Origin: an uncultured Actinomycetes bacterium
Lineage (GTDB): Bacteria > Actinomycetota > Actinomycetes > S36-B12 > CAIYMF01
Length of the DNA stretch: 32,000 nucleotides
Reading direction: 5' to 3'
NCBI GenBank assembly: GCA_963843975.1
Contig: CAWJMG010000003.1
Coordinates: forward strand, 630,001-662,000
The notes under the pieces are model-generated. The model saw only the letters and a list, made by a program, of their open reading frames with translations. It made no database searches and was not told the DNA's origin. Numbering within the stretch: position 1 is the first letter of the stretch; the number at the start of each line of letters is the position of its first letter. The position numbers and the translations under genes are program-made. Shown here piece by piece: positions 6,843 to 28,523 of the stretch.

Positions 6843-7826
6843 GTGAACATCCCCGGCTGGATCTGGGCTGCGACGATCGCGCTGTACGCGCTGCTCTTCG
6901 TCGTCGACCTGCTGGTCGTCGGCCGACGTCCTCACATCCCGAGCACGGCCGAGTGCGTCCGCTGGCTCGGTCTCTACGTCGGCATCGCGGTGGCCTTCGG
7001 GCTCGCCATGTGGTGGTGGGCGGGGCGCGACTACGCCATCCAGTTCTTCGCCGGCTGGGTCACCGAGTACAGCCTGTCGGTCGACAACCTGTTCGTGTTC
7101 CTGCTGATCATGGCGCGCTTCTTCGTGCCGCGAGAGCTGCAGCAGTCGGTGCTGATGTACGGCATCCTCATCGCGCTGATCCTGCGCGCGGTGTTCATCG
7201 TGCTCGGCGCCGCGGTGATCGCGCAGTACAGCTGGATCTTCTACTTCTTCGGCGTCTTCCTGGTGTTCACGGCGGTCAAGCTGGCGACCGAGGGTGAGAC
7301 CGATGACGACGAGTACCGCGAGAACGCCCTCGTCCGCTGGGTGTCGCGTCTCGTCTCCACCACGCCGGAGTTCCACGGGACGAAGCTGCACACGATCGTG
7401 GACGGCAAGAAGCTGTGGACCCCGATGCTGCTCGTGCTGCTCTCCCTCGGCACGACCGACCTCGTGTTCGCGCTGGACTCGATCCCGGCGATCTTCGGCC
7501 TCACCCAGGAGGCCTACATCGTCTTCGCGGCGAACGTGTTCGCCCTCCTTGGCCTGCGCCAGCTGTACTTCCTGCTCGGCGACCTGTTGAACCGGCTCAT
7601 CTACCTGTCGATCGGCCTGGCCATCGTCCTGGGGTTCATCGGCGTCAAGCTGGTGCTCGAGGCGATGCACACCAACTCCGTGCCGTTCCTCAACGGCGGG
7701 GAGCCGTTCGAGGTGCCCGTGCCCTCGACCGGGCTCTCGCTCGCCGTCATCGTCGTCGTGCTCACGATCACGACGGTGGCCAGTCTCGTCGTCTCCCGAC
7801 GTGAGGGGTCCGCCGAGTCCGGGTAG
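6843..7826 (+). CDS. TerC-family integral membrane protein (paralog 1)
   Basis: 327 aa and multi-TM, with TerC hallmarks 'EYSLSVDNLFVF' and 'DLVFALDSIPAIFG...FAANVFALLGLRQLYF'. GTG start. Confidence 0.9.
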   Translation: MNIPGWIWAATIALYALLFVVDLLVVGRRPHIPSTAECVRWLGLYVGIAVAFGLAMWWWAGRDYAIQFFAGWVTEYSLSVDNLFVFLLIMARFFVPRELQQSVLMYGILIALILRAVFIVLGAAVIAQYSWIFYFFGVFLVFTAVKLATEGETDDDEYRENALVRWVSRLVSTTPEFHGTKLHTIVDGKKLWTPMLLVLLSLGTTDLVFALDSIPAIFGLTQEAYIVFAANVFALLGLRQLYFLLGDLLNRLIYLSIGLAIVLGFIGVKLVLEAMHTNSVPFLNGGEPFEVPVPSTGLSLAVIVVVLTITTVASLVVSRREGSAESG

Positions 7827-7835
7827 GTTCGGTGG

Positions 7836-8843
7836 ATGGACGTCACCTTCGGGCTCTGGGCTGGCACCATCGCCGGGATCCTCCTGCTGATCGCGCTCGA
7901 TTTCGTCACGGTCAGCCGGAAGCCGCACGAGGTCGAGTTCCGCGAGGCGGCGCTGTGGTCGGTGTTCTACATCGGCATCGCGATCTCGTTCGGCGCCTGG
8001 ATCTGGTTCGCCTACGGGTCGAGCCCCGGCACCGAGTACTTCGCGGCGTACCTCGTGGAGAAGTCGCTGTCGGTCGACAACCTCTTCGTCTTCGTCATCA
8101 TCCTCGCGCAATTCGCTGTGCCATCCATCTACCACCAGCGCGTTCTGCTCGTGGGCGTCGTCCTCGCGCTGATCTTCCGCGCGATCTTCATCGCGATCGG
8201 TGCCGCCGCGCTGTCGGCGTTCGCGTTCACGTTCGTGATCTTCGGCGGCATCCTGATCTGGACCGGCATCGGGCTCTTCCGCCACCGGGACGCGGACCCG
8301 AACCCGAAGGACAACGCCGTCGTGCGCAACGTTCGCCGGTTCGTCCCTGTGACCGACGAGTACGACGGCGACAAGCTCTTCACGCACATCGACGGCAAGC
8401 GGTTGGCGACGCCGCTGTTCCTCGTGATGATCGCGATCGGGTCCACCGATCTTCTGTTCGCGCTGGACTCGATCCCCGCGACCTTCGGGGTGACGCAGGA
8501 GCCCTATCTCGTCTTCGCCGCGAACGCCTTCGCCCTGCTCGGCCTCCGCGCCCTCTACTTCCTGCTCAAGGGACTGCTCGACAAGCTCGTCTACCTGTCG
8601 ATCGGGCTGGCGCTGATCCTGGTCTTCATCGGTGTGAAGCTCGTGCTGCTGTGGGCGCACGAGACCTGGCCGTCGGTGCCCAAGATCGAGACGTCGACGT
8701 CCCTGGCCGTCATCGGCATCGTGCTGCTGGTGACGGGATTGGCGAGCTGGTGGGCGGTCAGGCGCGATCCGTCGCGGACAGCCCACGCCGGAACAGTGAC
8801 CGATCCGGCCCCGCACCAGGACGACGACCGGCCCAGCGGCTGA
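7836..8843 (+). CDS. TerC-family integral membrane protein (paralog 2)
   Basis: 335 aa with the same motifs ('EKSLSVDNLFVF', 'DLLFALDSIPATFG...FAANAFALLGLRALYF'). It begins 9 nt after paralog 1. Confidence 0.9.
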   Translation: MDVTFGLWAGTIAGILLLIALDFVTVSRKPHEVEFREAALWSVFYIGIAISFGAWIWFAYGSSPGTEYFAAYLVEKSLSVDNLFVFVIILAQFAVPSIYHQRVLLVGVVLALIFRAIFIAIGAAALSAFAFTFVIFGGILIWTGIGLFRHRDADPNPKDNAVVRNVRRFVPVTDEYDGDKLFTHIDGKRLATPLFLVMIAIGSTDLLFALDSIPATFGVTQEPYLVFAANAFALLGLRALYFLLKGLLDKLVYLSIGLALILVFIGVKLVLLWAHETWPSVPKIETSTSLAVIGIVLLVTGLASWWAVRRDPSRTAHAGTVTDPAPHQDDDRPSG

Positions 8844-8962
8844 CGGCGTGACGCGGCCGCTGCTCGTCGCCGGCGAGGAGCTTCTTCGCCGCATCGGCGT
8901 GGGCATGTGCGTGTGCACGCCGGCTCTCACCCCGGCGGAGGCACTGCGCACCGCAGAAGTGG

Positions 8963-8980
8963 CCCTGTACTGGTACAGGG
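8963..8980. repeat. 18-bp palindrome CCCTGTAC-TG-GTACAGGG in the long intergenic region
   Basis: 8-bp arms at 8963-8970 and 8973-8980, AT-richer than the surroundings, 120 nt after the terC2 stop. It could be a terminator hairpin or a dimeric-regulator operator. Confidence 0.4.
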
Positions 8981-9359
8981 TCACCGCGGCAGGGCCGGCG
9001 CGGGACATCCGGCTGCGATGACCGGCGCGTCGCGCTGGACGTCTTGCCGACGCAGCAACGGCGAAATGTGCAGGTAGCACGACACGCGCGGCACCGGACG
9101 CCCGAACCGCCCGGGCGTGTCGTCCGCGATCCGCTGGTGTGCAACGACTTTCATCGCCGCCTGTGGTCGCTGGCCGACGTCGTCGTGCACCGACTGACAG
9201 GTCAGAGATGGTTAACGCGACGCGCCGTCGCAGCGGTACACGAGCGTTACGCACGCTCCCTAGCGTCCTCGACAGAGAAGGCCAGGACTGCACGTCGACG
9301 ATGACGTGGGCAGCTGGTCACGGGGATCACGACCGTGGGGACGGTCGAAGGGGGTTGTG

Positions 9360-11084
9360 ATGTCGATCGATGTCGGGCTGAGCCCGGACAGCGTTTCCGT
9401 GCACACCGAATCGGGTGAGGCCCTGGCGCCGGCACTCGCTGAGCGGCCGGTGTCGGCACCGTCGGACCGCGAGGTCTACTACTACTTCGGCCCGCAGAAG
9501 CGCTGGGTCAGCCTGTTCATGACAACCGCGTTCGCCCTCGCGGCCTACAGCCTCTTCAAGTTCTCCCTCAACAGCGCGTGGCTGCTGCCGATCCTGGTCG
9601 TGCTGGCGATCAACGTGTTCGGCTCGATCCTCTCCATGCTGTCCGGCCTCAACCGCCGGCGGATCGACCGTGCTGACCACGAGGCGCTGATCGCCGCGTG
9701 GCACCCCGAGGTCGCGCCGAGCGTGGACGTCTTCCTGCCGACCTGCGGCGAGCCACTGGAGATCCTCGCCAACACCTACGACCACGTGGCCGCCCTGCGG
9801 TGGGACGGTCGGCTGACCGTGCTCGTCCTGGACGACGGTGATCGTGCAGAGGTGCGCGAGCTCGCGGAGTCCTACGGGTTCCGCTACGAGGTGCGGCCGG
9901 ACCGAGGACGGATGAAGAAGGCGGGCAACCTGCGCCACGGGTTCTCCGTGACCGACGGCGACCACATCGCCATCTTCGACGCCGACTTCTGTCCCCGAGC
10001 CGACTATCTCTTCCACCTGATCCCGTATCTGGACGAGCCCGACGTGGGCATCGTCCAGAGCCCGCAGGCCTTCGATGCTTCGCGGCAGATGGGCTGGCTC
10101 CAGCGCACCGCCGGGGCGACGCAGGAGCTCTTCTACCGCTGGGTGCAGCCGTCGCGCGACCGTGCGGGCGCCCCCATCTGCGTGGGTACGAACGCGATCT
10201 ACCGACGGGCGGCGCTCACCGACGTAGGCGGCTTCGCCCAGATCGAGCACAGCGAGGACGTCCACACGGGTATCACGCTCCTCCGTGGAGGCTGGAGCAC
10301 GAAGTACGTGCCGATCGTGGTGGCCAAGGGGCTCTGCCCCGACGACCTCGCGGGGTTCCTCAATCAGCAGTACCGCTGGTGCAACGGCTCCATCACGCTG
10401 CTCAAGAGCGGCGAGGCCCACCGACGGCCGCTGAAGCTGCGCCAGCGCATGTGCTTCTGGGCCGGCTTCATGTACTACATCGGCACAGCCGTCAACGTGT
10501 TCGTCGTCCACCTTCCCGGCACGGTCATGGCCTTCTTCTACCCGGAGGAGGTACGCGCGGCGCACTACGTGCCCTTCATGGTCGGGGCCTGGGTCTACCT
10601 CGTGCTTCTCCCGAGCGTCTTCAAGTCGCACTGGCGCTTCGAGGTCCTGCGCGTGCAGATGGCCTACAGCTTCAGCCACACGGTGGCACTCGTGCACAAG
10701 GTGACCGGGCGGTCGGCCGGCTGGGTGCCGACGGGTGCCGTCAGCGCGTCGAGCCACCTCGCGCGCACCATCGCGAAGGTCGGTCTCGTGACGCTCACCT
10801 TCACCATGGCCGCGTCCTGGGCGGGCGTGCTCTACGCCGTGCCGGCGTTCGGTCTTGCGGAGTTCTGGCCGATGATCGTCTTCAACATCGGCTACACCTA
10901 CCTGGCTCTGCCGCTCGCGCTCGACTTCGGTCGTCTGCTCGGCGCCGGACGCGCGGCCACCAGGGCGCTGACAGCTCCGGTCGAAGCAGCCCCCGAGGCC
11001 GACGCCACGGTCGACATCCGCGAGATCGACCTGCGCGGGCTCGTCCCGGCGGCACGGACCGCTCTCGAGGGCGGCGCCGCATGA
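9360..11084 (+). CDS. Processive family-2 glycosyltransferase, cellulose-synthase-like (BcsA/CslA-type) beta-glycan synthase
   Basis: Two N-terminal TM helices, then 'LVLDDGD', 'KKAGNLRHG' (cf. BcsA HAKAGNLN), 'IFDADF' (DxD), 'QSPQAF', 'VGTNAIYRR', 'SEDVHTGITLLRGGW' (TED motif) and 'QQYRWCNG' (QxxRW), followed by about four C-terminal TM helices. No PilZ-like RxxxR/DxSxxG tail. The start is at ATG 9360, preceded by GAAGGGGG. Confidence 0.88.
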   Translation: MSIDVGLSPDSVSVHTESGEALAPALAERPVSAPSDREVYYYFGPQKRWVSLFMTTAFALAAYSLFKFSLNSAWLLPILVVLAINVFGSILSMLSGLNRRRIDRADHEALIAAWHPEVAPSVDVFLPTCGEPLEILANTYDHVAALRWDGRLTVLVLDDGDRAEVRELAESYGFRYEVRPDRGRMKKAGNLRHGFSVTDGDHIAIFDADFCPRADYLFHLIPYLDEPDVGIVQSPQAFDASRQMGWLQRTAGATQELFYRWVQPSRDRAGAPICVGTNAIYRRAALTDVGGFAQIEHSEDVHTGITLLRGGWSTKYVPIVVAKGLCPDDLAGFLNQQYRWCNGSITLLKSGEAHRRPLKLRQRMCFWAGFMYYIGTAVNVFVVHLPGTVMAFFYPEEVRAAHYVPFMVGAWVYLVLLPSVFKSHWRFEVLRVQMAYSFSHTVALVHKVTGRSAGWVPTGAVSASSHLARTIAKVGLVTLTFTMAASWAGVLYAVPAFGLAEFWPMIVFNIGYTYLALPLALDFGRLLGAGRAATRALTAPVEAAPEADATVDIREIDLRGLVPAARTALEGGAA

Positions 11085-11251
11085 GCCGCCACCTGCGCGA
11101 GCCCGGGGCCGTCGAGCCGCCACGTCCTCTGGACGTCGCATCACCGGAAAGCCTCGGCCGGGCCGAGGCGATCGCACTGTCCGTGGCCGTCGGCCTGGCA
11201 GCAGCCGTCGCTGCGGGCTGGTTCGACCCGATGATGCCCTGGAGCGGCTGA
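11081..11251 (+). CDS. 56-aa single-pass membrane micro-protein, translationally coupled between the synthase and the acyltransferase
   Basis: Its ATG overlaps the GT2 stop (ATGA at 11081-11084). Its TGA shares a base with the next gene's ATG (TGATG at 11249-11253). Sequence: MSRHLREPGAVEPPRPLDVASPESLGRAEAIALSVAVGLAAAVAAGWFDPMMPWSG, with one TM helix and mostly G/C third positions. Confidence 0.6.
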   Translation: MSRHLREPGAVEPPRPLDVASPESLGRAEAIALSVAVGLAAAVAAGWFDPMMPWSG

Positions 11252-13350
11252 TGTCCACGCTAGACGCACGTCTCGAGCAGGCACCGGCTGCGGAACGGCA
11301 GACCCCGCGTTTCGTGGCGGGCTTCCACCCCGACATCGAGGGCCTGCGAGCGATCGCAGTCCTCACGGTGCTCGCCTTCCATGCGGCTGTGCCGCACCTC
11401 GCCGGCGGCTTCGTCGGTGTGGATGTCTTCTTCGTGATCTCCGGCTACCTGATCACGAGCCTCATGCTCGTGGAGCTGTCGGAGACGGGCACGATCTCGT
11501 TGCGCGAGTTCTACGCACGACGAGGACGGCGCATCCTGCCGAGCGCGGGCGTCGTCATCGTCGCGATCGGCATCGCTTCGTGGTTCGTGCTGCCGATGCT
11601 GGGCGTCCGGAACGTCGCGCAGGACATGGTCGCCGCCGCGCTGTTCGTCGTGAACTGGCACTTCATCGCGCAGGGCACCGACTACCTCGCCGCGAGCTCG
11701 GACCACAGCCCGCTGCTGCACTTCTGGTCGCTCGCGGTGGAGGAGCAGTTCTACTTCGTGTGGCCCGCCGCCCTGCTCCTCGCCGTCTACCTCGCGCGCC
11801 GGTTCGGCCGGTCCTGGGTCGCGGCCATCGGGGTCGTGGTCGCCGCCACGGCCGTCGGGTCGTTCACGCTGTCGCTCCTGTCGACCGCCGGATCGCCACC
11901 CTTCGCCTACCTCAGCTCACCGACCCGTGCCTGGCAGTTCGCCGTCGGTGCCGCGATCGCACTGGCCGCACCGGCGCTGCGCCGCCTTGCCGAGGGACGG
12001 GGCGCGGCGCCGGTGCTCCTCCTGCTCGGCTGGGCGGGTCTGCTCGGCGTTCTTGCCTCGGCCGTGCTGTTCGACGAGTCGACGCCGTACCCGGGGTCAG
12101 CAGCACTGCTGCCCACCTTCGGCACGGCGGCCATGATCGTGGCGGGCATCCTCGGCCGGCCCGGGACAGGCAGCGCGTCGTCGCTGCTGGCCACGGCACC
12201 GATGCGCGCCATCGGCCGGCTCTCCTTCGCCTGGTACCTCTGGCACTGGCCGTTCGTCGTCTTCGGCCAGCAGATCCTCGGGGCCGACAGCGCATGGCCG
12301 GTGCTCGTCCTGCTCGTGCTCGCGTCTGCTGCGCCCGCATGGCTGTCGCTGCGCTTCCTCGAGCGACCCATCCGGTTCGCACCGGGCATCGCCTCGCGGG
12401 CCAGCGCCGGACTGGCGGTCGGGGCGATCTCGACCATGGTCGCCCTCGTGGCCGGCCTGTTCGTCGGCACGCAGTCGCTCCTCACGCTGGGCAGCGTCGA
12501 CACCCTGGCCCAGGCCGCGACCATCTCGTCGGTGTTCGGCGACGCGGGTGAAGCCTCGCGGACGTCCGGGGCCGTCAGCCCGACGCCGCTCAAGGCGCGG
12601 GACGACAGGCCACGGCCGGACGAGTGCATCCTGCAGCGCGGCCAGACGGCGGCTCCTGCCTGCGAGTTCGGACTGGCGTCCGGACCTACGGTCGTCCTGT
12701 TCGGCGACAGCCACGCGCAGCAGTGGCAGCCGACGTTCGAGGCCATGGCCGACGACCGGGGATGGCGACTCGTCGTCGTCACCAAGTCCGGCTGCCCCGT
12801 GCCACTCATCTCGCCACGTGAGGACGGAGCCCTGTTCTCACAGCCCGACTGTGCGGAATGGCGGGAGCAGTCCTTCCAGCGCATCTCCACCGAGCTGAAG
12901 CCCGATCTCATCGTGGTGTCGTCGCTCTGGAACTACGTGCCGGACCAGGCCGAGGTCCGGACAGCCTGGAACACCTCGCTCGAGAGGCTTCGTGCGGCGG
13001 GGGCGCCCATCGCCTACATCCGTGACACCCCGTTCCCGCACGCGGACGTGCCCGTGTGCATGTCGGATGCCGAGGAGGACTGGTCCCGGTGCTCGTTCGC
13101 CCGAGACGCGGCGCTCACCACTGATCCGATCCAGGTGGAGGCCCTCCAGGGCAAGGCCGACGGCGTCAGCATCCTCGATTTCACGAGCTATCTCTGTCCC
13201 GAGTCCTCGTGCCCGGCGGCCCGCGGAGGCACGCTGTTCTACCGGGACGACTCGCACATCACGGCGACGCTGGCGAAGGTCCTTACCCCCGCCGTCGCCC
13301 AGCAGCTGGACGACGCCGGGATCGCCCCGGCGACGTCGCCGAGGGACTGA
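11251..13350 (+). CDS. Acyltransferase-3 (OafA/YrhL-type) membrane O-acyltransferase fused to a C-terminal SGNH domain
   Basis: 699 aa. AT3 N-terminal signature 'IEGLRAIAVLTVLAFHA...VDVFFVISGYLIT' and about 10 TM helices, then a soluble C-terminus with the SGNH block I 'VVLFGDSHAQQW' and 'YRDDSHIT'. Confidence 0.88.
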   Translation: MSTLDARLEQAPAAERQTPRFVAGFHPDIEGLRAIAVLTVLAFHAAVPHLAGGFVGVDVFFVISGYLITSLMLVELSETGTISLREFYARRGRRILPSAGVVIVAIGIASWFVLPMLGVRNVAQDMVAAALFVVNWHFIAQGTDYLAASSDHSPLLHFWSLAVEEQFYFVWPAALLLAVYLARRFGRSWVAAIGVVVAATAVGSFTLSLLSTAGSPPFAYLSSPTRAWQFAVGAAIALAAPALRRLAEGRGAAPVLLLLGWAGLLGVLASAVLFDESTPYPGSAALLPTFGTAAMIVAGILGRPGTGSASSLLATAPMRAIGRLSFAWYLWHWPFVVFGQQILGADSAWPVLVLLVLASAAPAWLSLRFLERPIRFAPGIASRASAGLAVGAISTMVALVAGLFVGTQSLLTLGSVDTLAQAATISSVFGDAGEASRTSGAVSPTPLKARDDRPRPDECILQRGQTAAPACEFGLASGPTVVLFGDSHAQQWQPTFEAMADDRGWRLVVVTKSGCPVPLISPREDGALFSQPDCAEWREQSFQRISTELKPDLIVVSSLWNYVPDQAEVRTAWNTSLERLRAAGAPIAYIRDTPFPHADVPVCMSDAEEDWSRCSFARDAALTTDPIQVEALQGKADGVSILDFTSYLCPESSCPAARGGTLFYRDDSHITATLAKVLTPAVAQQLDDAGIAPATSPRD

Positions 13351-13356
13351 TCACCG

Positions 13357-14418
13357 GTGGGGAACGCCATGGTCGAGCGACCACACAGGGTCGCGTCCGG
13401 CACCGGGCACGGGGAGAGGGGAAGGCGTACGCCGGTCCTGCTCCTGACGACCGCCGGGGTTCTCATGCTGCTGGCCGTTGTGTGGGTGATGGCGCGCGGG
13501 TCCGGACCACCGAACCCGTTCGTGGGGGTGCGGCTCTTCGTCGCTGACGGCACTCCGGCGAGCGCAGCGGTCGAGCAGGCCCTCGCGTCGGGGACACCGC
13601 CGGCCGACATCCAGGCGCTGCGCGTGCTGGCCGACCAGCCCACGTCGTCGTGGTTCGGCGACTGGGTGCCCGCTGACCGCGTCACTGGCGAGGTCTCGCG
13701 GCTTGTCGGTGACGCCACCTCCCGGGGCGAGTACCCCGTGCTGGTCGCCTACGCCATCCCCGGTCGGGACTGCGACCAGCAGTCCGCGGGCGGTGCCGCC
13801 TCCGCGGACGCGTACCGCAGCTGGATGCTCGCGTTCGCCTCTGGCATCGGCGACAGGTCCGCCGCCGTCGTGCTCGAGCCGGACGCGCTGTCCCAGCTGG
13901 AGTGCCTGTCCGATGCCCAGCGCTCGGAAAGGACCACGCTGCTGGCCTTCGCCGTCGACACCCTTGCGGCGTACCCCGCCGTCTCGGTGTACCTCGACGC
14001 CGGTCACTCGTCCTGGATCCCTGCGCAGGAGATGGCTGGCCGACTGCGGACCGCAGGCATCGACCAGGCGCGCGGGTTCGCGCTCAACGTCTCGAACTTC
14101 GGTACCACGGCCGAGGAGACGCAGTACGGCGACGAGCTGTCGGCGCTCGTGGACGACAAGCCCTTCGTCGTCGACACCTCCCGCAACGGCAACGGCCGCT
14201 GGGACGGAGACGAGTCGTGGTGCAACCCGCCTGGGCGAGCTGTGGGTGCGTCACCGCTGAGCCCGGTCGACGACCCGCGTGTCGACGCGCTGCTCTGGAT
14301 CAAGACCCCGGGGGCCAGCGACGGCGCCTGCCGGCCCGGCGAGCCCCCCGCAGGAACGTTCTGGCCCGAGTACGCCGTCGGCCTCGTCACCCGCTCCGCC
14401 CTCGCACCGACGACGTGA
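13357..14418 (+). CDS. Glycoside hydrolase family 6 (beta-1,4-glucanase) with an N-terminal membrane anchor and no CBM
   Basis: GH6 signatures 'VLVAYAIPGRDCDQQSAGG' and 'VVLEPDALS', plus 'YLDAGHSSW', 'GFALNVSNF', 'VVDTSRNGNG', 'WCNPPGRAVG' and 'LLWIKTPGASDG'. N-terminal TM 'VLLLTTAGVLMLLAVVWVMA'. GTG start at 13357 (alternative ATG at 13369), 6 nt after the previous stop. Confidence 0.88.
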   Translation: MGNAMVERPHRVASGTGHGERGRRTPVLLLTTAGVLMLLAVVWVMARGSGPPNPFVGVRLFVADGTPASAAVEQALASGTPPADIQALRVLADQPTSSWFGDWVPADRVTGEVSRLVGDATSRGEYPVLVAYAIPGRDCDQQSAGGAASADAYRSWMLAFASGIGDRSAAVVLEPDALSQLECLSDAQRSERTTLLAFAVDTLAAYPAVSVYLDAGHSSWIPAQEMAGRLRTAGIDQARGFALNVSNFGTTAEETQYGDELSALVDDKPFVVDTSRNGNGRWDGDESWCNPPGRAVGASPLSPVDDPRVDALLWIKTPGASDGACRPGEPPAGTFWPEYAVGLVTRSALAPTT

Positions 14419-14470
14419 CCTACGCCGCTCCCGTCGCCTCCGCACATCGCACGACAGACAGGGAAACCCC

Positions 14471-15790
14471 ATGAGCATCCGCATGACCGTCATCGGAACC
14501 GGCTACCTCGGTGCCGTCCACGCCGCGTGCATGGCCAACCTCGGCTTCGACGTGCTCGGCGTCGACCACGACGTCGAGAAGATCGCAGTCCTCGCGAACG
14601 GCAAGACGCCGTTCTTCGAGCCCGGACTCGACGAGAGCCTGACCCGTGCGCTCGAGTCCGGCCGTCTGCGTTTCACCACCTCGTTGGCCGAGGCGGCGGA
14701 GTTCGGCGACGTTCACTTCGTGTGTGTCGGCACTCCCCAGAAGGACGGGTCCTATGCCGCCGACCTGCGGCACGTCGACAGCGTGGTCACAGGTCTGGCA
14801 CCGATGCTCACCAGGCCGTGCCTCGTCGTCGGGAAGTCGACGGTCCCGGTGGGCACCGCCCGCCGACTCGCGGACATGCTCACCGAGCTGAGCCCCGCTG
14901 GTGATGCCGTCGAGCTGGCGTGGAACCCGGAGTTCCTCCGTGAGGGGTTCGCCGTCCAGGACACCATGTCGCCGGACCGCATCGTGCTAGGAGTCGAGAC
15001 GCCGTCGGCGGAAGCGGTGCTGCGGGACGTGTACGCGTCGATGATCGAGCGCGAGATCCCGGTGATGGTGACCGACTACGCGACGGCCGAGCTCGTGAAG
15101 GTGTCGGCGAACGCCTTCCTGGCGACCAAGATCTCGTTCATCAACGCGATGGCCGAGGTGTGCGAGGTCACCGGCGCCGATGTCACGATGCTGGCCGATG
15201 CGATCGGGGCCGACGCCCGTATCGGACGCACGTTCCTCGGTGCCGGTCTCGGGTTCGGGGGTGGGTGCCTGCCGAAGGACATCCGTGCCTTCATGGCGCG
15301 GGCGGGCGAGCTCGGGGTCGACCAGGCGCTGACGTTCCTGCGCGAGGTCGACGAGATCAACATGCGGCGGCGTCACCGCGTCGTGGAGCTCACCCGCGAG
15401 GCCCTGGGTGGCCGGCTGCTCGGGATGTCGGTGGCCTGCCTGGGTGCCGCGTTCAAGCCCGACAGCGACGACGTCCGCGACTCGCCGGCGCTGAACGTCG
15501 CCGCAGCCCTGCAGCTGCAGGGCGCGCAGGTGCGGGTGGCGGACCCCGAGGCGACGTCGAACGCGCATCGCCTCTTCCCGACTCTTGCCTACACGACCTC
15601 GGGAGAGGAGGCAGTGGTGGGCGCCGATGCCGTCCTGCTGCTGACCGAGTGGCGCGAGTACTGCGACCTCGACCCTGTCGCGATGGGGGGCCTCGTGCGC
15701 CGGCGCACTGTGGTGGACGCGCGCAACGCGCTCGATCCCGCGGTCTGGCGGCAGGCGGGCTGGACCTACAGGGGCATCGGGCGCCCGTGA
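14471..15790 (+). CDS. ugd: UDP-glucose 6-dehydrogenase (UDP-glucose/GDP-mannose dehydrogenase family)
   Basis: Rossmann motif 'MTVIGTGYLGAVHAACMA', 'NPEFLREG', catalytic-Cys region 'GFGGGCLPKD', and 'AFKPDSDDVRDSPAL'. The start is at ATG 14471 after AGGGAAA. The track ORF start at 14279 overlaps the GH6 gene in a non-protein-like frame. Confidence 0.92.
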   Translation: MSIRMTVIGTGYLGAVHAACMANLGFDVLGVDHDVEKIAVLANGKTPFFEPGLDESLTRALESGRLRFTTSLAEAAEFGDVHFVCVGTPQKDGSYAADLRHVDSVVTGLAPMLTRPCLVVGKSTVPVGTARRLADMLTELSPAGDAVELAWNPEFLREGFAVQDTMSPDRIVLGVETPSAEAVLRDVYASMIEREIPVMVTDYATAELVKVSANAFLATKISFINAMAEVCEVTGADVTMLADAIGADARIGRTFLGAGLGFGGGCLPKDIRAFMARAGELGVDQALTFLREVDEINMRRRHRVVELTREALGGRLLGMSVACLGAAFKPDSDDVRDSPALNVAAALQLQGAQVRVADPEATSNAHRLFPTLAYTTSGEEAVVGADAVLLLTEWREYCDLDPVAMGGLVRRRTVVDARNALDPAVWRQAGWTYRGIGRP

Positions 15791-15918
15791 CGGCCCCTGA
15801 CACTGCAAGGGCCGCCACGGTGCCGATCGGAGGTCAGCCGTAGGCGGCCGCGAGGGCCTCCTCGGTCGCGGTCCAGGCGCCGGCGGCGTCGTCGGCGGCC
15901 TGCTGGGCGGCGGCCGGG

Positions 15919-16368
15919 TCACCCGAGGTCGTCAGCGGCGACACCTTCGCGGTGCAGCTCGTCGAGCGTTGCGCGGAAGGCCTTCTCCGTGGCGGGGTCA
16001 GGGCAGATGGGCACGTCGTGCGCTGCCTTGAGGGCGGCCAGCGCATCGGTCGCTGCGGGCTTCACGGCTGCCGGGCCGTTGGCGGCAGCGGAGCCGAGGG
16101 TCTGCATCGCCGACTCGACATCGTTGCGTGCGGAGCCGTAGCGGGCCGCCCACCCTCCGATCACGGCTGCGACGTCACCGCTGCCCGGCGACGCCGTCGG
16201 GTCGGTCGTGGAGGAGTCCGTGACCGCGGGCGGGGTGGTCGTCGCGCCCTCGGGCGCTGTCATGTCGCCGCATGCGGTCACGCCGAGGACGAGCAGCGGC
16301 ACGGTGACGAGGGCGAGTCGTCGGGCGGGGGACACAGCGGAGCGCTGGTGGCGCTGGGTCTTCATCAT
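15919..16368 (-). CDS. Small lipoprotein of unknown function (3' end possibly frameshifted; coding signal continues to 15834 in another frame)
   Basis: MMKTQRHQRSAVSPARRLALVTVPLLVLGVTAC has a basic n-region and a lipobox (VTAC), followed by a Thr/Pro linker and an Ala-rich helical body. The track ORF extends upstream to 16824 in a low-complexity Ser/Thr/Arg frame that is antisense to the MBL gene. Confidence 0.65.
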   Translation of the reverse strand: MMKTQRHQRSAVSPARRLALVTVPLLVLGVTACGDMTAPEGATTTPPAVTDSSTTDPTASPGSGDVAAVIGGWAARYGSARNDVESAMQTLGSAAANGPAAVKPAATDALAALKAAHDVPICPDPATEKAFRATLDELHREGVAADDLG

Positions 16369-16438
16369 GCGGGTGCCGTACCCCGGCGCCGATGGTCTAA
16401 CCCTGGTCGGTCGCGCGTTCTGGACAGCGGCAGCGCGG

Positions 16439-17095
16439 CTAGTAGCCGCGCTCGCGCCACTCGGCGAGGTGCGGGCGCTCTGCGCCGAGGGTCGTGTCCT
16501 TGCCGTGGCCCGGGTACACCCAGGTCTCGTCCGGGAGAGTGTCGAACAGCTTGCCGACCACGTCGCAGTACAGGCTGTCGAACCTCGCCGCGTCGCCCCA
16601 GGTGTTGCCGATGCCGCCCGGGAAGAGCGAGTCACCGGTGAAGACGTGCGGCGCACCGGTCGGGTCGTCGTAGACCAGCGCGACCGAGCCTGGTGTGTGT
16701 CCGACCAGGTGGACGACGCGGAGCGAGACCTGGCCGAACGTGATGAGGTCGCCGTCGGCGAGAGTCCGGTCGACGGGTACCTCGATGTCGACGGAGTCGG
16801 CGGCATGCGCCCAGTGCTCGGCACCGGTGGCCGCGACCACGTCCGCCAGCGCCTGCCAGTGGTCCTTGTGACCGTGCGTCGTGATCACCGCTTGGAGGCC
16901 GTCGTCGCCCACGAGCTCGAGAAGCCGGTCCGCCTCCGCCGCGGCGTCCAGCAGCACCTGCGTGCCGGTGGCGGTGCAGCGCAGCAGGTAGGCGTTGTTG
17001 TCGTACGGACCGACGGCCAGCTTGCTGACCACGAGGTCGCGCAGGTCGTGGACTGCGGCAGGGCCGCCGACGGTGACGTTCCCGGTGTAGCTCAC
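16439..17095 (-). CDS. MBL-fold metallo-hydrolase (glyoxalase II / hydroxyacylglutathione-hydrolase-like)
   Basis: 'VITTHGHKDHWQA' (HxHxDH), 'LVGHTPGS', 'TGDSLFPGG' and 'PGHG'. The start is set at GTG 17095 (MSYTGNVTVGGPA...), typical for this family. The upstream part of the track ORF is Arg-rich junk. Confidence 0.85.
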   Translation of the reverse strand: MSYTGNVTVGGPAAVHDLRDLVVSKLAVGPYDNNAYLLRCTATGTQVLLDAAAEADRLLELVGDDGLQAVITTHGHKDHWQALADVVAATGAEHWAHAADSVDIEVPVDRTLADGDLITFGQVSLRVVHLVGHTPGSVALVYDDPTGAPHVFTGDSLFPGGIGNTWGDAARFDSLYCDVVGKLFDTLPDETWVYPGHGKDTTLGAERPHLAEWRERGY

Positions 17096-25916: not shown

Positions 25917-26207
25917 GTGAGTGAGCAGCGGCCCTACGAGTACGTCGCATGGATTCGCGACAACCGGCTGGTGGAAGACGACCAGGATCGGGAGTGGCCC
26001 GCTGTCTTCATCGTGACGGCGCTCTCGGCCACGGAAGCACAGGCGTGGGGCGATCACCTATCGGCGGGGCGCTTCTCGCCGGGTCATCCCGAGGAGTTCA
26101 GTCACTCGGTCGTCCGACCTGCCAGCGACTCGACGATCCCCAACCTGGCGGACCTCCCTGTGATCCCCTACGGCTACGAGGCGTCGGCTGCCGAGGTCGG
26201 TTGGTAG
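25917..26207 (+). CDS. Hypothetical acidic 96-aa protein
   Basis: GTG start. MSEQRPYEYVAWIRDNRLVEDDQDREWPAVFIVTALSATEAQAWGDHLS... has a balanced, protein-like composition (W/Y/F/E/D), unlike the alternative frames. No family was recognised. Confidence 0.5.
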   Translation: MSEQRPYEYVAWIRDNRLVEDDQDREWPAVFIVTALSATEAQAWGDHLSAGRFSPGHPEEFSHSVVRPASDSTIPNLADLPVIPYGYEASAAEVGW

Positions 26208-26288
26208 CGCCTATGTGCCGATAGCGCTCGCCCCTCGCGTAGCTAAGCGGCATCCTCGTCCCCATGGATCAGGCGGCGCCTGCCGGCG

Positions 26289-26597
26289 ATGGAACGGCCC
26301 GTGAGACGACGATCTGGGTGGGTCGGGTCGCTCGCTTCACCGTCTCGGTCCCGGAAGCTTGGCCAGCCGGATGTGGCCCTTGCCCTGTTGACCTCGGACG
26401 GGCGAACCGTCGAACTCGAGTTCCTCGGGGTTATCGCTCTGGAAGTCCACGACTTCATGACCGGGTGGCCGATGACCCTGCAGATCACCGATCGCTCGCT
26501 CGATGGCTGGGAACGAGCCGACTTCGAGGTTTCCGACGCAGAGGAAGGCACCCTGCGCTTCCGGTGCGCCGAGGTCCGCTCGTCCATGACGGGCTAG
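26289..26597 (+). CDS. Small immunity-protein-like hypothetical (start uncertain, possibly frameshifted)
   Basis: The C-terminal 75 aa, 'VALALLTSDGRTVELEFLGVIALEVHDFMTGWPMTLQITDRSLDGWERADFEVSDAEEGTLRFRCAEVRS', look like a genuine beta-rich protein. The first 28 codons are Arg/Ser-rich. Alternative starts are GTG 26373, or ATG 26264 in another frame. Confidence 0.5.
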   Translation: MERPVRRRSGWVGSLASPSRSRKLGQPDVALALLTSDGRTVELEFLGVIALEVHDFMTGWPMTLQITDRSLDGWERADFEVSDAEEGTLRFRCAEVRSSMTG

Positions 26598-26612
26598 AAG
26601 TGCCGTTATCGA

Positions 26613-28523
26613 TTGGGTTTCCCCGTGAGCGGAGAGATTCTCCGCGGGCTGATTTCGCTTGGGGCTGAACGGTTCTCGGTCTGGATGGCCTCTGGAGGCG
26701 CCGCACTGTCAGAGGTGGTCGGCAGACTTGTCCTCATCAGGTTCGGTGGTGGTGAGGAGGTGACCGTGGCCGCTACTGCTGCTTCCTTCGTCGATCTCGA
26801 CGAGGGCGTGCCGATGCCGGCGGGCTGGTCGCCATACCCCTCGCTGCTGGAGATCGCCGAGCACGAGGCGCGCATGGCCTCCCTGGGTTCGGGCGAGCGT
26901 GATGAGCTCCAGCACCCGGACGATGTGCTGGATCGGACGGACCTGTTCGTGGACCCGGTGGCGGCGCTGTCGCTGCTTGCGGGTGAGGGATCGGGTGCGA
27001 CCTCGTTCGACCTCGGCGTCCTCGAGGCGGTGGACCCGGCCGCGCTTTCGGAGCCGATGGACAAGCTCGCGGTGCTCAAGGGTTTGGACAAGATCGAAGG
27101 GCTGGTCGGGTCGCTGCGGATCCGCGCCCTCACCTCGCTCGCCGGCACCAAGCCGGGCGAGGCCCTGGTCGACGAGCTTCATCTCGAGCATGAGATCGCC
27201 GTCGCCCGGCGCACCTCGGACTACTCCGCGGGCAAGGCCCTGGATCTGGCGCGCACGATCACTGCAACGTTCCCGGAGTTCCTCGTCGCCCTTGGCGCCG
27301 GCCGGGTGTCGTGGTCGCATCTGGCCGTGCTGGTGGAGCGGACCCGGTTCGTGGAGAACCCCACCGCGCTCACGGAGATCGGCACCCGGGCGCTGGTCCG
27401 TGCGCTGACCCGGACCCCCGGACAGTTCGCACAGGAGGTCGAGAAGCTCGTAGCCCGGTTCGACCCTGACGCCGCCGCACGTCACCGCAAGGCCAAGAAG
27501 AAGGATCGCAAGGTCTGGGTCAAGCAGCTCGCCGACGGCATGGGCATGCTCGGCTACATCGACGAGTGGGCCGTGGTCAACGCCGTCTACGAGACCCTCG
27601 CCGCCGACGCCAAGGCCACGAAGAAGGCCCGCAAGGACAAGAAGGCGGGCACGAAGCACGGCAAGAAGGCCGCGACGCCGGGCGGCGACTTGGTCCCAGT
27701 CGCCGACCGCGAGGTCGACGTCGTCGAAAGCGACCCGAGCGCCCCCGGTCCGCTCGATGTCGTCGAGGACTCCACCAACGCCGACGCCGACAGCAGAGAC
27801 CTGCGGGACGAGGCCGTGCCGAACTCGGAGGAGTCGTCGGCGGACGCCGACCGCGCGGACGCGCTCGCCGCGCGGGTGCTGGGCGTGGTGCACGAGGACG
27901 GCTCGGTGACGTGGGATCGCGCAGCCTCGACGCAGGTGCGTACGAGCCTGGTCGTGGACCTCAACACCCTGCGCGGCGAGGCCGACGGGATCGGTCTGCT
28001 GGACGGCCAGCCGATCCCGGCGGAGATCGCCCGCGAGATCGCGGGCCGCACCCACTCGTGGCGGCGGTTCGTGACCGACCCCGTCGACGGGCACCTCATC
28101 GACCGCGGCACCGACGTCTATGTCGACCCGCACCTGCGCTCGTTCATCCTTGCCCGCGACATCTGCCGCAACCCCGTCCACCGGCACGCCCTGACCTCGA
28201 CGCGGCTGGAGATGGACCACGCCGAGGAGTTCCCCCACGGGCCCACCTCGGCACCGAACTGCGGCGCGCTGTGCCTCCCCTCCCATCAGCTCAAGACCGC
28301 CCGCAGGGTCGACATCACCGACTCGGCGGCCGACGGGTCCTGCACCTGGACCACCGACTGGGGCCAGGTCGTGCACATTCCGCCCCGACCGTTCCTCGAA
28401 CACCCCGACCCGCCCGCCACCGAGCAGCCGGAGCCCGCGCCACCCGACGCTGCCGGGCCGACCCAGCACGCCCCACCACCCGGGGACACCCCGCCACCGG
28501 ACGACGACCCGCCACCCTTCTGA
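26613..28523 (+). CDS. DUF222-domain HNH endonuclease (REP13E12 / '13E12 repeat' family)
   Basis: DUF222-like region '[39 protein letters not shown]...[16 protein letters not shown]...[25 protein letters not shown]...[22 protein letters not shown]'. C-terminal HNH region '[51 protein letters not shown]...[10 protein letters not shown]'. The start codon is uncertain (TTG 26613 or GTG 26625). Confidence 0.85.

Follow-up and report, generated by a model that had tools for sequence, protein, structure and literature searches.

An actinobacterial operon that joins a BcsA-type synthase to its own detached membrane helix and a fused acyltransferase, probably to make an O-acylated beta-glucan

Beta-glucans made by synthase-dependent systems have a central place in biofilms and cell envelopes. 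In the BcsA-BcsB(-BcsZ-BcsC) system, a processive membrane glycosyltransferase of family 2 (GT2) requires the transmembrane (TM) anchor of its partner BcsB; in the CslA-GlxA-CslZ system of Streptomyces, the predicted binding partner of CslA is the TM helix at the N-terminus of GlxA (PMC11022532). In Wss of Pseudomonas and the clostridial CcsABZHI system a BcsA-type synthase is joined by extracytoplasmic O-acetylation, with an SGNH-fold protein as the final transferase (PMC8892547). Among Actinobacteria only the Streptomyces CslA-GlxA pair has been studied. Here we describe a five-gene operon at positions 9360 to 15790, on the plus strand, of a 32,000-nucleotide window from an uncultured Actinomycetes bacterium (contig CAWJMG010000003.1); all coordinates without a locus name are those of the whole window, counted from its first letter. 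The synthase of this operon belongs to a GT2 family that differs from CslA. The system is real, well conserved and uncharacterised: a BcsA-type synthase with new partners. On balance, we read it as a minimal synthase-dependent machine whose product is an O-acylated beta-glucan, either secreted or associated with the wall.

The operon is tightly laid out. By direct reading of the sequence, the junctions between its five same-strand genes measure -4, -1, +6 and +52 nucleotides. The stop codon of the GT2 gene overlaps the start of a small open reading frame (ORF) in the ATGA at 11081-11084, and the stop of that ORF overlaps the start of an acyltransferase gene in the TGATG at 11249-11253. The acyltransferase gene stops at 13350, 6 nucleotides before the GTG start, at 13357, of a gene for a glycoside hydrolase of family 6 (GH6; an alternative ATG lies at 13369). 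From the GH6 stop at 14418 to the ATG of a dehydrogenase gene at 14471 is a gap of 52 nucleotides, which forms no stable structure (RNA folding z = +0.73), and a scan of 8700-16500 for intrinsic terminators found no terminator-like site. Shine-Dalgarno-like purine runs precede the gene starts. All five genes, the 56-residue ORF included, are also recovered by gene calling with codon usage learned from related loci, and a sister genome whose GT2 is 94% identical keeps the same genes in the same order, with both overlaps and the same flanking genes. Such agreement is far beyond what chance would produce.

Pfam and NCBIfam searches upheld the domain calls for the GT2, the acyltransferase, the GH6 and the dehydrogenase, and the signature or catalytic residues are intact in all four products with assigned domains. 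A first-pass annotation of the window had proposed this layout, including the absence of a hairpin from the last gap, and had read it as a single unit of transcription and translation for a synthase-dependent exopolysaccharide. The layout is as it described. The overlaps, the unstructured gap and the lack of an internal terminator support a single operon, and the annotation's GT2, Acyl_transf_3, SGNH, Glyco_hydro_6 and UDPG_MGDP_dh assignments proved right when the searches were run. It is an operon for making, chemically modifying and trimming a secreted sugar polymer. The annotation also did not recognise the combination as a characterised system. Our literature search, which covered few subscription journals, likewise found no paper describing a system of GT2, micro-protein and fused acyltransferase, and the reviews of Bcs systems and of acyltransferase-3 (AT3) proteins do not mention one.

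The first gene (9360-11084, plus strand) encodes a processive, membrane-integrated, BcsA-like GT2 synthase. Pfam finds Glycos_transf_2 and Glyco_trans_2_3 domains, and hydropathy places two TM helices ahead of the GT domain and four behind it. The motifs of a processive enzyme are all present: D158-D159-G, K187-A-G-N, D207-A-D, Q233-S-P-Q-A-F, S298-E-D and Q336-Q-Y-R-W. Across 17 homologues of 52-95% identity, the D, DxD, SED and QQYRW motifs do not vary. Pfam gives no PilZ match in the window GT2. The full motif set, the flanking helices and the missing PilZ domain are thus as first annotated. A phmmer search of the PDB with the window GT2 returns BcsA chains as its sole sequence matches (8e-37). 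For structural comparison a model was made of P0019, a Rhodococcus triatomae homologue, 65% identical to the window protein, in which the micro-protein segment is fused (AlphaFold, mean pLDDT 79.6, pTM 0.81). Past the GT domain this model is all-helical, like a synthase that lacks PilZ. The chain runs through two TM helices and an interface helix to a low-confidence loop where the gating loop should lie, then through a further pair of TM helices and a linker to one last helix. Foldseek places BcsA first (6e-20, TM-score about 0.6), followed by plant CesA and hyaluronan synthases. The modelled fold is that of the BcsA class.

Where in this class does the enzyme belong? We compared it with five references: E. 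coli BcsA; a Sinorhizobium GT2 of 664 residues that lies behind an HlyD-type gene, as in bgsBA; an Agrobacterium CrdS-like protein of 655 residues; a GT2 from a Leptolyngbya plasmid; and CslA, taken from a cslA-glxA-cslZ locus in metagenome contigs that was traced through a published cslA primer sequence. Since NCBIfam has no models for CrdS or BgsA, those two references were identified by length and context only. The Leptolyngbya protein scores highest against the window GT2 (288 bits), followed by the BgsA-like (163), the CrdS-like (158), E. coli BcsA (136) and CslA (95). Among the references, only the Leptolyngbya protein shares with this family the sequence W455-V-P-T-G-A at the gating-loop position, the QQYRWC motif and a shortened QxPQxF loop, whereas BcsA and the BgsA-like and CrdS-like proteins have F-x-V-T-x-K-G at the gating loop. 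The SED and CVGT variants are common to the family and the CrdS-like protein. The scores and the pattern of motif sharing make the GT2 a distinct subfamily and not a CslA orthologue. This bears on the placement against BcsA, CslA and CrdS, among others, that the first-pass annotation had proposed, made here by scores and motifs. The nearest characterised relatives are all beta-glucan synthases that use UDP-glucose (PMC6821405).

The closest relative outside the Actinobacteria is that of Leptolyngbya boryana plasmid pLBA (L086, 7986-9497; 36% identity over 436 residues). It sits among hypothetical genes on a cyanobacterial plasmid, with no AT3-SGNH gene nearby. A plasmid search with the GT2 gave no actinobacterial match, and the cyanobacterial homologue was its best. 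The small ORF that follows the Leptolyngbya GT2 was considered as a micro-protein and ruled out: it has neither a TM helix nor the motif described below.

Each described system resembles the operon in part. With BcsA-BcsB(-BcsZ-BcsC) it shares the membrane-embedded processive GT2 motifs, the best fold and sequence match in the PDB, a glucanase gene in the operon and a single-TM partner helix; however, the window GT2 is only about 28% identical to E. coli BcsA, has two rather than four N-terminal TM helices and reads WVPTGA where BcsA has FxVTxK, and the operon lacks PilZ, BcsB and BcsC and carries a GH6 instead of a GH8. CslA-GlxA-CslZ is likewise actinobacterial, with a synthase that lacks a full PilZ domain, an ATGA overlap with a next gene that starts with a TM helix, and a GH6 without a carbohydrate-binding module beside the synthase. 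Yet the two synthases are not orthologous (29% identity over 244 residues) and stand further apart than the GT2 and BcsA; CslA keeps FxVTxK, and no acyltransferase or dehydrogenase is described in that system. BgsBA of rhizobia, which makes a mixed-linkage glucan, and CrdS of Agrobacterium, which makes curdlan, are BcsA-like synthases without PilZ, and the corresponding references, assigned by length and context, are 36% and 34% identical to the window GT2. Their partners, in contrast, are the HlyD-type BgsB or CrdA and CrdC, with the canonical FKVTxKG loop, no acyltransferase and no split TM helix.

Is the five-gene set conserved? A scan of a genome collection with one genome per species found 303 sites with relatives, and the best 80 were examined; their GT2s are 50-64% identical to that of the window. 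About 90 related loci were compared in all, among which L081 to L084 all carry one sister protein, P0001. The 80 loci come from Gordonia, Rhodococcus, environmental mycobacteria, Microbacteriaceae, Cellulomonas relatives and Kitasatospora. In tblastn searches with the window proteins, the AT3-SGNH gene lies directly downstream of the GT2 or the micro-protein in 73 of the 80. Four of the seven exceptions are contig ends, which leaves 73 of 76 informative loci. Gene calling and clustering recover the same core order in Kitasatospora and Streptomyces, Mycobacterium, Gordonia, Rhodococcus and Williamsia, Dermatophilaceae, Microbacteriaceae and the Cellulomonas relatives Sanguibacter and Flavimobilis. 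Among the closer, independently annotated metagenome relatives with a distinct GT2, six of seven have AT3-SGNH directly downstream (L089-L092, L094 and L095). The seventh, L093 (5487-8963), is a rare exception to the core, with the GT2, two small ORFs of 113 and 105 residues and a GH6, and no AT3-SGNH. In L094 (7763-9839) AT3 and SGNH are separate genes of 256 and 343 residues, 275 nucleotides apart, with a transposase-associated gene nearby; this is either a natural split or a decayed copy.

The remaining genes vary. GH6 is largely confined to Micrococcales, the window lineage and a handful of metagenome contigs. The loci of Corynebacteriales carry instead a GH26 and a lipase-like hydrolase, six loci have a GH16, and the Kitasatospora loci have GNAT and GH25 genes. 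The full five-gene set recurs, with the GH6 divergent and upstream, in Sanguibacter, Flavimobilis and Galbitalea, and an 84%-identical relative keeps the order of the window up to the GH6, its contig ending in an unannotated fifth gene. The conserved unit is therefore the GT2, the micro-protein and the AT3-SGNH, with GH6 and the dehydrogenase as lineage-specific additions. Of the five-gene cassette that the first-pass annotation had proposed to survey, this three-gene core is conserved, while the five-gene set as a unit is not.

The second gene (11081-11251, plus strand) encodes 56 residues: a single TM helix followed by a conserved C-terminal motif, GWFDxMxPW. It had first been taken for an accessory unrelated to the synthase. 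Comparison of relatives shows instead that it is the split-off last, seventh, TM helix of the synthase itself. A profile hidden Markov model built from 20 small ORFs of the GT2-AT3 interval picks up the element in 75 of 81 loci. About 22 loci have it as a separate ORF that as a rule overlaps the genes on both sides by 1-4 nucleotides, and in about 50 it forms the last 40-55 residues of the GT2. The best 120 database homologues comprise 32 fused and 88 split forms. Because both states occur within Gordonia and again within Mycobacterium, and because all five G. alkanivorans database entries are split, we take the split to be real and recurrent and not a sequencing error. The JGI, ENA and Logan pipelines call the gene independently, at 53-71 residues. 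Relative to the sister genome, the TM helix and the motif are kept and the N-terminal 20 residues have diverged. From the helix count of the synthase, the C-terminus would face outward.

The position of the micro-protein recalls GlxA. In a Streptomyces-type contig cslA and glxA also overlap in an ATGA (L103, 7252-7255), so that the micro-protein occupies the same genetic position as GlxA; searched against the GlxA TM anchor and the CslA C-terminus, its profile gave no significant match. Neither the operon nor the clustered neighbourhoods contain a BcsB-like gene, and no GlxA-like oxidase was found in the window, in the 80 loci or in 15 further related ones. Neighbours of about 600 residues at Kitasatospora loci were considered as GlxA and rejected, since by sequence inspection they are metallopeptidase-like and sedolisin-like.

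The third gene (11251-13350, plus strand) encodes an O-acyltransferase in which AT3 and SGNH domains are fused; it has about 10-11 TM helices, and its SGNH part is extracytoplasmic. Pfam matches are strong (Acyl_transf_3, 6.8e-29; SGNH, 1.6e-34). An exact-sequence query with the AT3 protein gave no match, and a query at cluster level did retrieve it. Judged by the residues essential in OafA (PMC7448272), the AT3 domain is complete, with R33-X10-H44, G52-G-F-V-G-V-D, F60-F-V-I-S-G and R90-R-G-R, and so is the SGNH domain, with G485-D-S in block I and D666-D-S-H in block V. The Pfam matches and the complete residue set bear out the fused partner that had been annotated. Four pairs of cysteines are compatible with an extracytoplasmic SGNH domain. 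The best NCBIfam match is SucT, below threshold at 220 bits against a cut-off of 1275. OafA, OafB and OatA have the same fused architecture; those proteins, however, modify O-antigen, peptidoglycan or lipoglycans, and for none of them is a processive synthase known as a partner. Wss and Ccs, the acetylating systems, differ in the other direction: they use an MBOAT protein of the WssH/AlgI type, separate SGNH-like proteins and BcsB homologues, whereas here one fused protein is found and no BcsB.

Might these neighbours serve no common product? The AT3-SGNH protein could act on peptidoglycan or another wall polymer, as such proteins, OatA among them, are known to do (PMC7448272); the GH6 could attack environmental cellulose, as a member of a family of classic secreted cellulases; and the dehydrogenase could supply other pathways. 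The GH25 muramidase near the Kitasatospora loci fits this explanation. We nevertheless consider it highly improbable, given that GT2 and AT3-SGNH adjoin in nearly all informative loci, across at least five orders and often with stop/start overlaps, that the first three junctions in the window are so close, and that the GH6 lacks a carbohydrate-binding module and resembles the synthase-associated CslZ.

That GH6, the fourth gene product (13357-14418, plus strand), is an endo-beta-1,4-glucanase-like enzyme. It matches Glyco_hydro_6 (1.9e-61, 209 bits) and no carbohydrate-binding module, and its motifs are intact (R137-D-C, EPD with D174, DAGH and DTSRNG). An N-terminal Arg-rich tail precedes a hydrophobic segment at about residues 23-51 by hydropathy, and together with the Pfam match this supports the GH6 with an N-terminal TM or signal segment first annotated. 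The first-pass annotation also counted the GH6 as a difference from Streptomyces. It is not one: CslZ is itself a GH6 (PMC9040799), 45% identical in its Streptomyces-type form. The best PDB match is M. tuberculosis Cel6/CelA1 (Rv0062; 1UOZ, 2e-76, full length), the closest solved relative, for which, unlike the window enzyme, no synthase partner is known in its organism (PMC8892547). Given its resemblance to CslZ and CelA1, the pairing of a GH6 with a synthase is not new. No GT2 homologue was found in M. tuberculosis or M. smegmatis entries, the mycobacterial lists holding environmental mycobacteria only, so the family can inform the search for the mycobacterial cellulose machinery only indirectly.

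What is the polymer? Several points in the rest of this paragraph and in the two that follow speak against our reading, or against parts of it. The NCBIfam BcsA/CelA models (TIGR03030 and NF008558) give 173 bits against a cut-off of 699 and 145 against 992; this shortfall and the WVPTGA loop make it unsafe to assign cellulose synthase function by homology. The predicted placement and contacts of the micro-protein come from a model of a fused homologue and not of a complex. The N-terminus of the GH6 could be a cleaved signal peptide, possibly of the Tat type, rather than an anchor.

The hydrolases of sister lineages raise a further difficulty. In 36 Corynebacteriales loci the GH26 that stands behind AT3-SGNH is closest to the Clostridium thermocellum lichenase Lic26A (CelH domain), matched over its full length at 1.8e-44, and mannanases match only partially, at 1e-13. 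The GH16 of the six loci is closest to beta-1,3-glucanases and laminarinases (7.5e-60). In a 68%-identical relative (L090, 6600-12949), a lichenase-like GH26 on one side and a GH6 on the other enclose one core of GT2, 62-residue micro-protein and AT3-SGNH. To our knowledge GH6 enzymes cleave only beta-1,4 bonds. The GH6 of the window thus points to beta-1,4 bonds in the polymer, and the lichenase-like GH26 and laminarinase-like GH16 point to beta-1,3 bonds, so that a cellulose-type, beta-1,4 product is not established. The same machine might instead make a mixed-linkage beta-(1,3;1,4)-glucan, or another backbone with beta-1,3 bonds, like BgsA or Romboutsia RiGT2; the GH6 would cut the beta-1,4 bonds of that polymer. 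That the BgsA-type and CrdS-like references outscore E. coli BcsA, and that SED and CVGT are shared with the CrdS-like protein, is in keeping with such a product. But the sole hydrolase of the window is a GH6, the GH26 and GH16 substrates are predicted from the nearest solved structures only, and motif variants are unreliable guides to linkage: GT2 enzymes do not all keep the Thr of TED, and the basis on which CrdS and BcsA set linkage is still undefined (PMC6821405). We judge a mixed-linkage backbone unlikely and still a serious rival, because of the GH26, the GH16 and the locus that holds both GH26 and GH6.

The fifth gene (14471-15790, plus strand) encodes a nucleotide-sugar dehydrogenase of the UDP-glucose 6-dehydrogenase (UGD) type. 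Pfam finds three UDPG_MGDP_dh domains, and TIGR03026 scores 420 bits, above its cut-off of 189.8; both support the UDP-sugar 6-dehydrogenase that had been annotated, and the catalytic cysteine lies in GGGC266LPKD. The best equivalog models, both for UDP-glucose dehydrogenases, score below their cut-offs (TuaD, 369 bits against 700; AglM, 332 against 670), so UDP-glucose is a predicted substrate. Of the 80 loci, 13 contain a dehydrogenase gene, which in 8 of them follows AT3, GH26 or GT2 directly. It adjoins the cluster in at least nine loci other than the window, in at least four gene orders (AT3-UGD, GH26-UGD, GT2-UGD and GH6-UGD) across Micrococcales, Rhodococcus, Nocardioidaceae and the window lineage. 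Two observations belong with the difficulties above. A comparison of UGD-linked and unlinked GT2s gave 22 clade-correlated positions, none suggesting uronate binding. Pfam and gene calling find no second glycosyltransferase in the operon that would add glucuronate to the polymer.

Could the polymer be acidic? The GT2 might take UDP-glucuronate, alone or alternating with UDP-glucose, to make an O-acylated chain of the glucuronan or cellubiuronan type. The has and cps3 loci classically pair a single synthase with an adjacent UGD gene, and Cps3S and hyaluronan synthases use two donors. The window resembles that layout: the dehydrogenase lies within the operon, 52 nucleotides past the GH6 with no terminator between, the UGD stands next to the core in several independent arrangements, and the cluster has no other glycosyltransferase. 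On the other side, neither sequence nor fold places the GT2 among dual-donor synthases of the HasA type (hyaluronan synthase structures match the P0019 model at only 1e-12 and 12-16% identity, on a par with CesA and below BcsA); about 67 of the 80 loci have no UGD within 8 kb; no charged or suggestive change in the active site marks the UGD-linked synthases; a GH6 is not expected to cut glucuronan; and the sub-threshold equivalog scores leave the dehydrogenase substrate itself a prediction. We regard an acidic chain as unlikely. Separately, 11 loci (L018-L043 and L003/L068, in Mycobacterium and Rhodococcus) have a gene a few kb from the core that by sequence inspection is an RmlA-type glucose-1-phosphate thymidylyltransferase; in Rhodococcus it directly follows the dehydrogenase.

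How is the synthase regulated? From the missing PilZ domain, the first-pass annotation had concluded that gating by cyclic di-GMP was not to be expected. The missing domain does not exclude such control. CslA responds to cyclic di-GMP without a full PilZ domain (PMC11022532), and BgsA, which itself lacks PilZ, is nonetheless controlled by it (PMC5567048). In the relatives that are 94% and 84% identical, a PAS-GGDEF gene lies directly upstream, between the second TerC gene and the synthase, which makes control by cyclic di-GMP likely in this lineage. An intact gene stands at the same position in L081, L083, L084 and L089. Outside the window lineage no GGDEF gene is a direct upstream neighbour; Sanguibacter has one about 7.5 kb upstream, at the edge of the locus.

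In the window strain this gene has been lost. By blastn and tblastn against L081, only the last 60 or so codons of a PAS-GGDEF diguanylate cyclase remain (8839-9021, plus strand), with 67% amino acid identity to residues 258-317 of the 317-residue L081 protein. A deletion of about 866 bp relative to the sister genome, in the region of window positions 8826-9021, removed the rest, and with it the dedicated cyclase. The remnant is 74% identical to the sister in nucleotides, against 87% for its surroundings, and contains a perfect 11-bp hairpin (8959-8984) without a counterpart in the intact gene. An RAATR sequence (RxxxR) in the tail of the GT2 was considered as a cyclic di-GMP site and discounted, as it is not conserved in the family consensus.

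Between the remnant and the synthase lies a leader or promoter region of 338 nucleotides (9022-9359, plus strand), ending in a Shine-Dalgarno-like GAAGGGGG just before the ATG at 9360. A sigma-70 scan found no consensus-like site in it, and an Rfam search over the whole window gave no match. We rejected the leader as a conserved regulatory RNA: its identity to the sister genome (86.7%) is no higher than that of coding DNA, and nhmmer finds nothing like it upstream of other loci. At the other end, a GC-rich hairpin (15785-15820, plus strand) that overlaps the last stop codon is a candidate end of the transcription unit; the segment 15785-15865 folds at -42.2 kcal/mol (z = -1.79).

The operon lies between two TerC genes and uvrA, in a window of about 70% G+C with a conserved backbone of rpsA, coaE, uvrB, the TerC genes, uvrA, a Rieske gene, uvrC, rapZ, yvcK, whiA and gap. 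The ribosomal protein S1 of the window clusters at 90% identity with those of Longivirga aurantiaca (Sporichthyaceae) and a Nanopelagicales MAG. By gene calling, the genes downstream of the operon are on the opposite strand and convergent with it. About 650 nucleotides at 15791-16438 have no counterpart in the sister genome, where an MBL-fold gene starts 5 nucleotides past the dehydrogenase. Within them, on the minus strand at 15919-16368, is a lipoprotein-like ORF of 149 residues, with LGVTAC resembling a lipobox and no Pfam match. The TerC-family genes (6843-8843) are tandem paralogues of about 68% DNA identity, and no yybP-ykoY or other Rfam riboswitch was detected upstream of them. At 25917-28523, between yvcK and whiA, which are expected to adjoin, stand two small ORFs and a DUF222 protein of 636 residues (26613-28523), with a local dip in G+C to 0.66; together they may be a mobile DUF222 element that has been inserted here. 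At 209-1357, on the minus strand, is a gene for a secreted DUF4185/DUF5005 protein. DUF4185 has recently been linked to arabinogalactan-degrading glycosidases.

How might the parts work together in the machine that we favour? The scheme we infer, including its donor sugar, linkage, acyl group, micro-protein topology, physical complex, use of UDP-glucuronate and regulation, would run as follows. The GT2 would polymerise UDP-glucose at the cytoplasmic face and pass the chain through its own TM channel, like BcsA, BgsA and CrdS. The micro-protein, its synthesis coupled to that of the GT2 through the ATGA overlap, would give the synthase its seventh TM helix in trans. It would probably stabilise the channel, the role played elsewhere by the single TM anchors of BcsB or GlxA. 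The AT3 domain would take an acyl group, acetyl or possibly succinyl, from acyl-CoA in the cytoplasm and pass it through the membrane, and the tethered SGNH domain would esterify the emerging glycan outside the cell. The GH6, secreted or anchored, would cleave beta-1,4-glucosidic linkages to free the polymer, set its size or clear it away, as proposed for CslZ and BcsZ. The dehydrogenase would make UDP-glucuronate, in the window lineage most likely for a minor or alternating residue of the polymer. The upstream PAS-GGDEF cyclase of close relatives would place the machine under cyclic di-GMP control. The product is probably an O-acylated beta-glucan.

A bolder proposal is that the operon represents a third, minimal design of beta-glucan synthase, in which a TM peptide of about 50 residues replaces BcsB or GlxA, AT3-SGNH is obligate, the product is an undescribed O-acylated glucan with mixed linkages, glucuronate or both, and cyclic di-GMP binds at a site outside any PilZ domain. 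We offer this tentatively, as a possibility that may well prove too strong.

The GT2 family described here is routinely auto-annotated as cellulose synthase without evidence. It offers three testable ideas. The natural alternation of split and fused forms indicates that a TM helix of a synthase may be able to act in trans. A single-protein AT3-SGNH route may acylate a nascent glucan. That GH6, GH26 and GH16 have all been recruited to one core hints at uncommon linkage chemistry. Experiments are feasible in cultured carriers, among them Gordonia alkanivorans and G. polyisoprenivorans.

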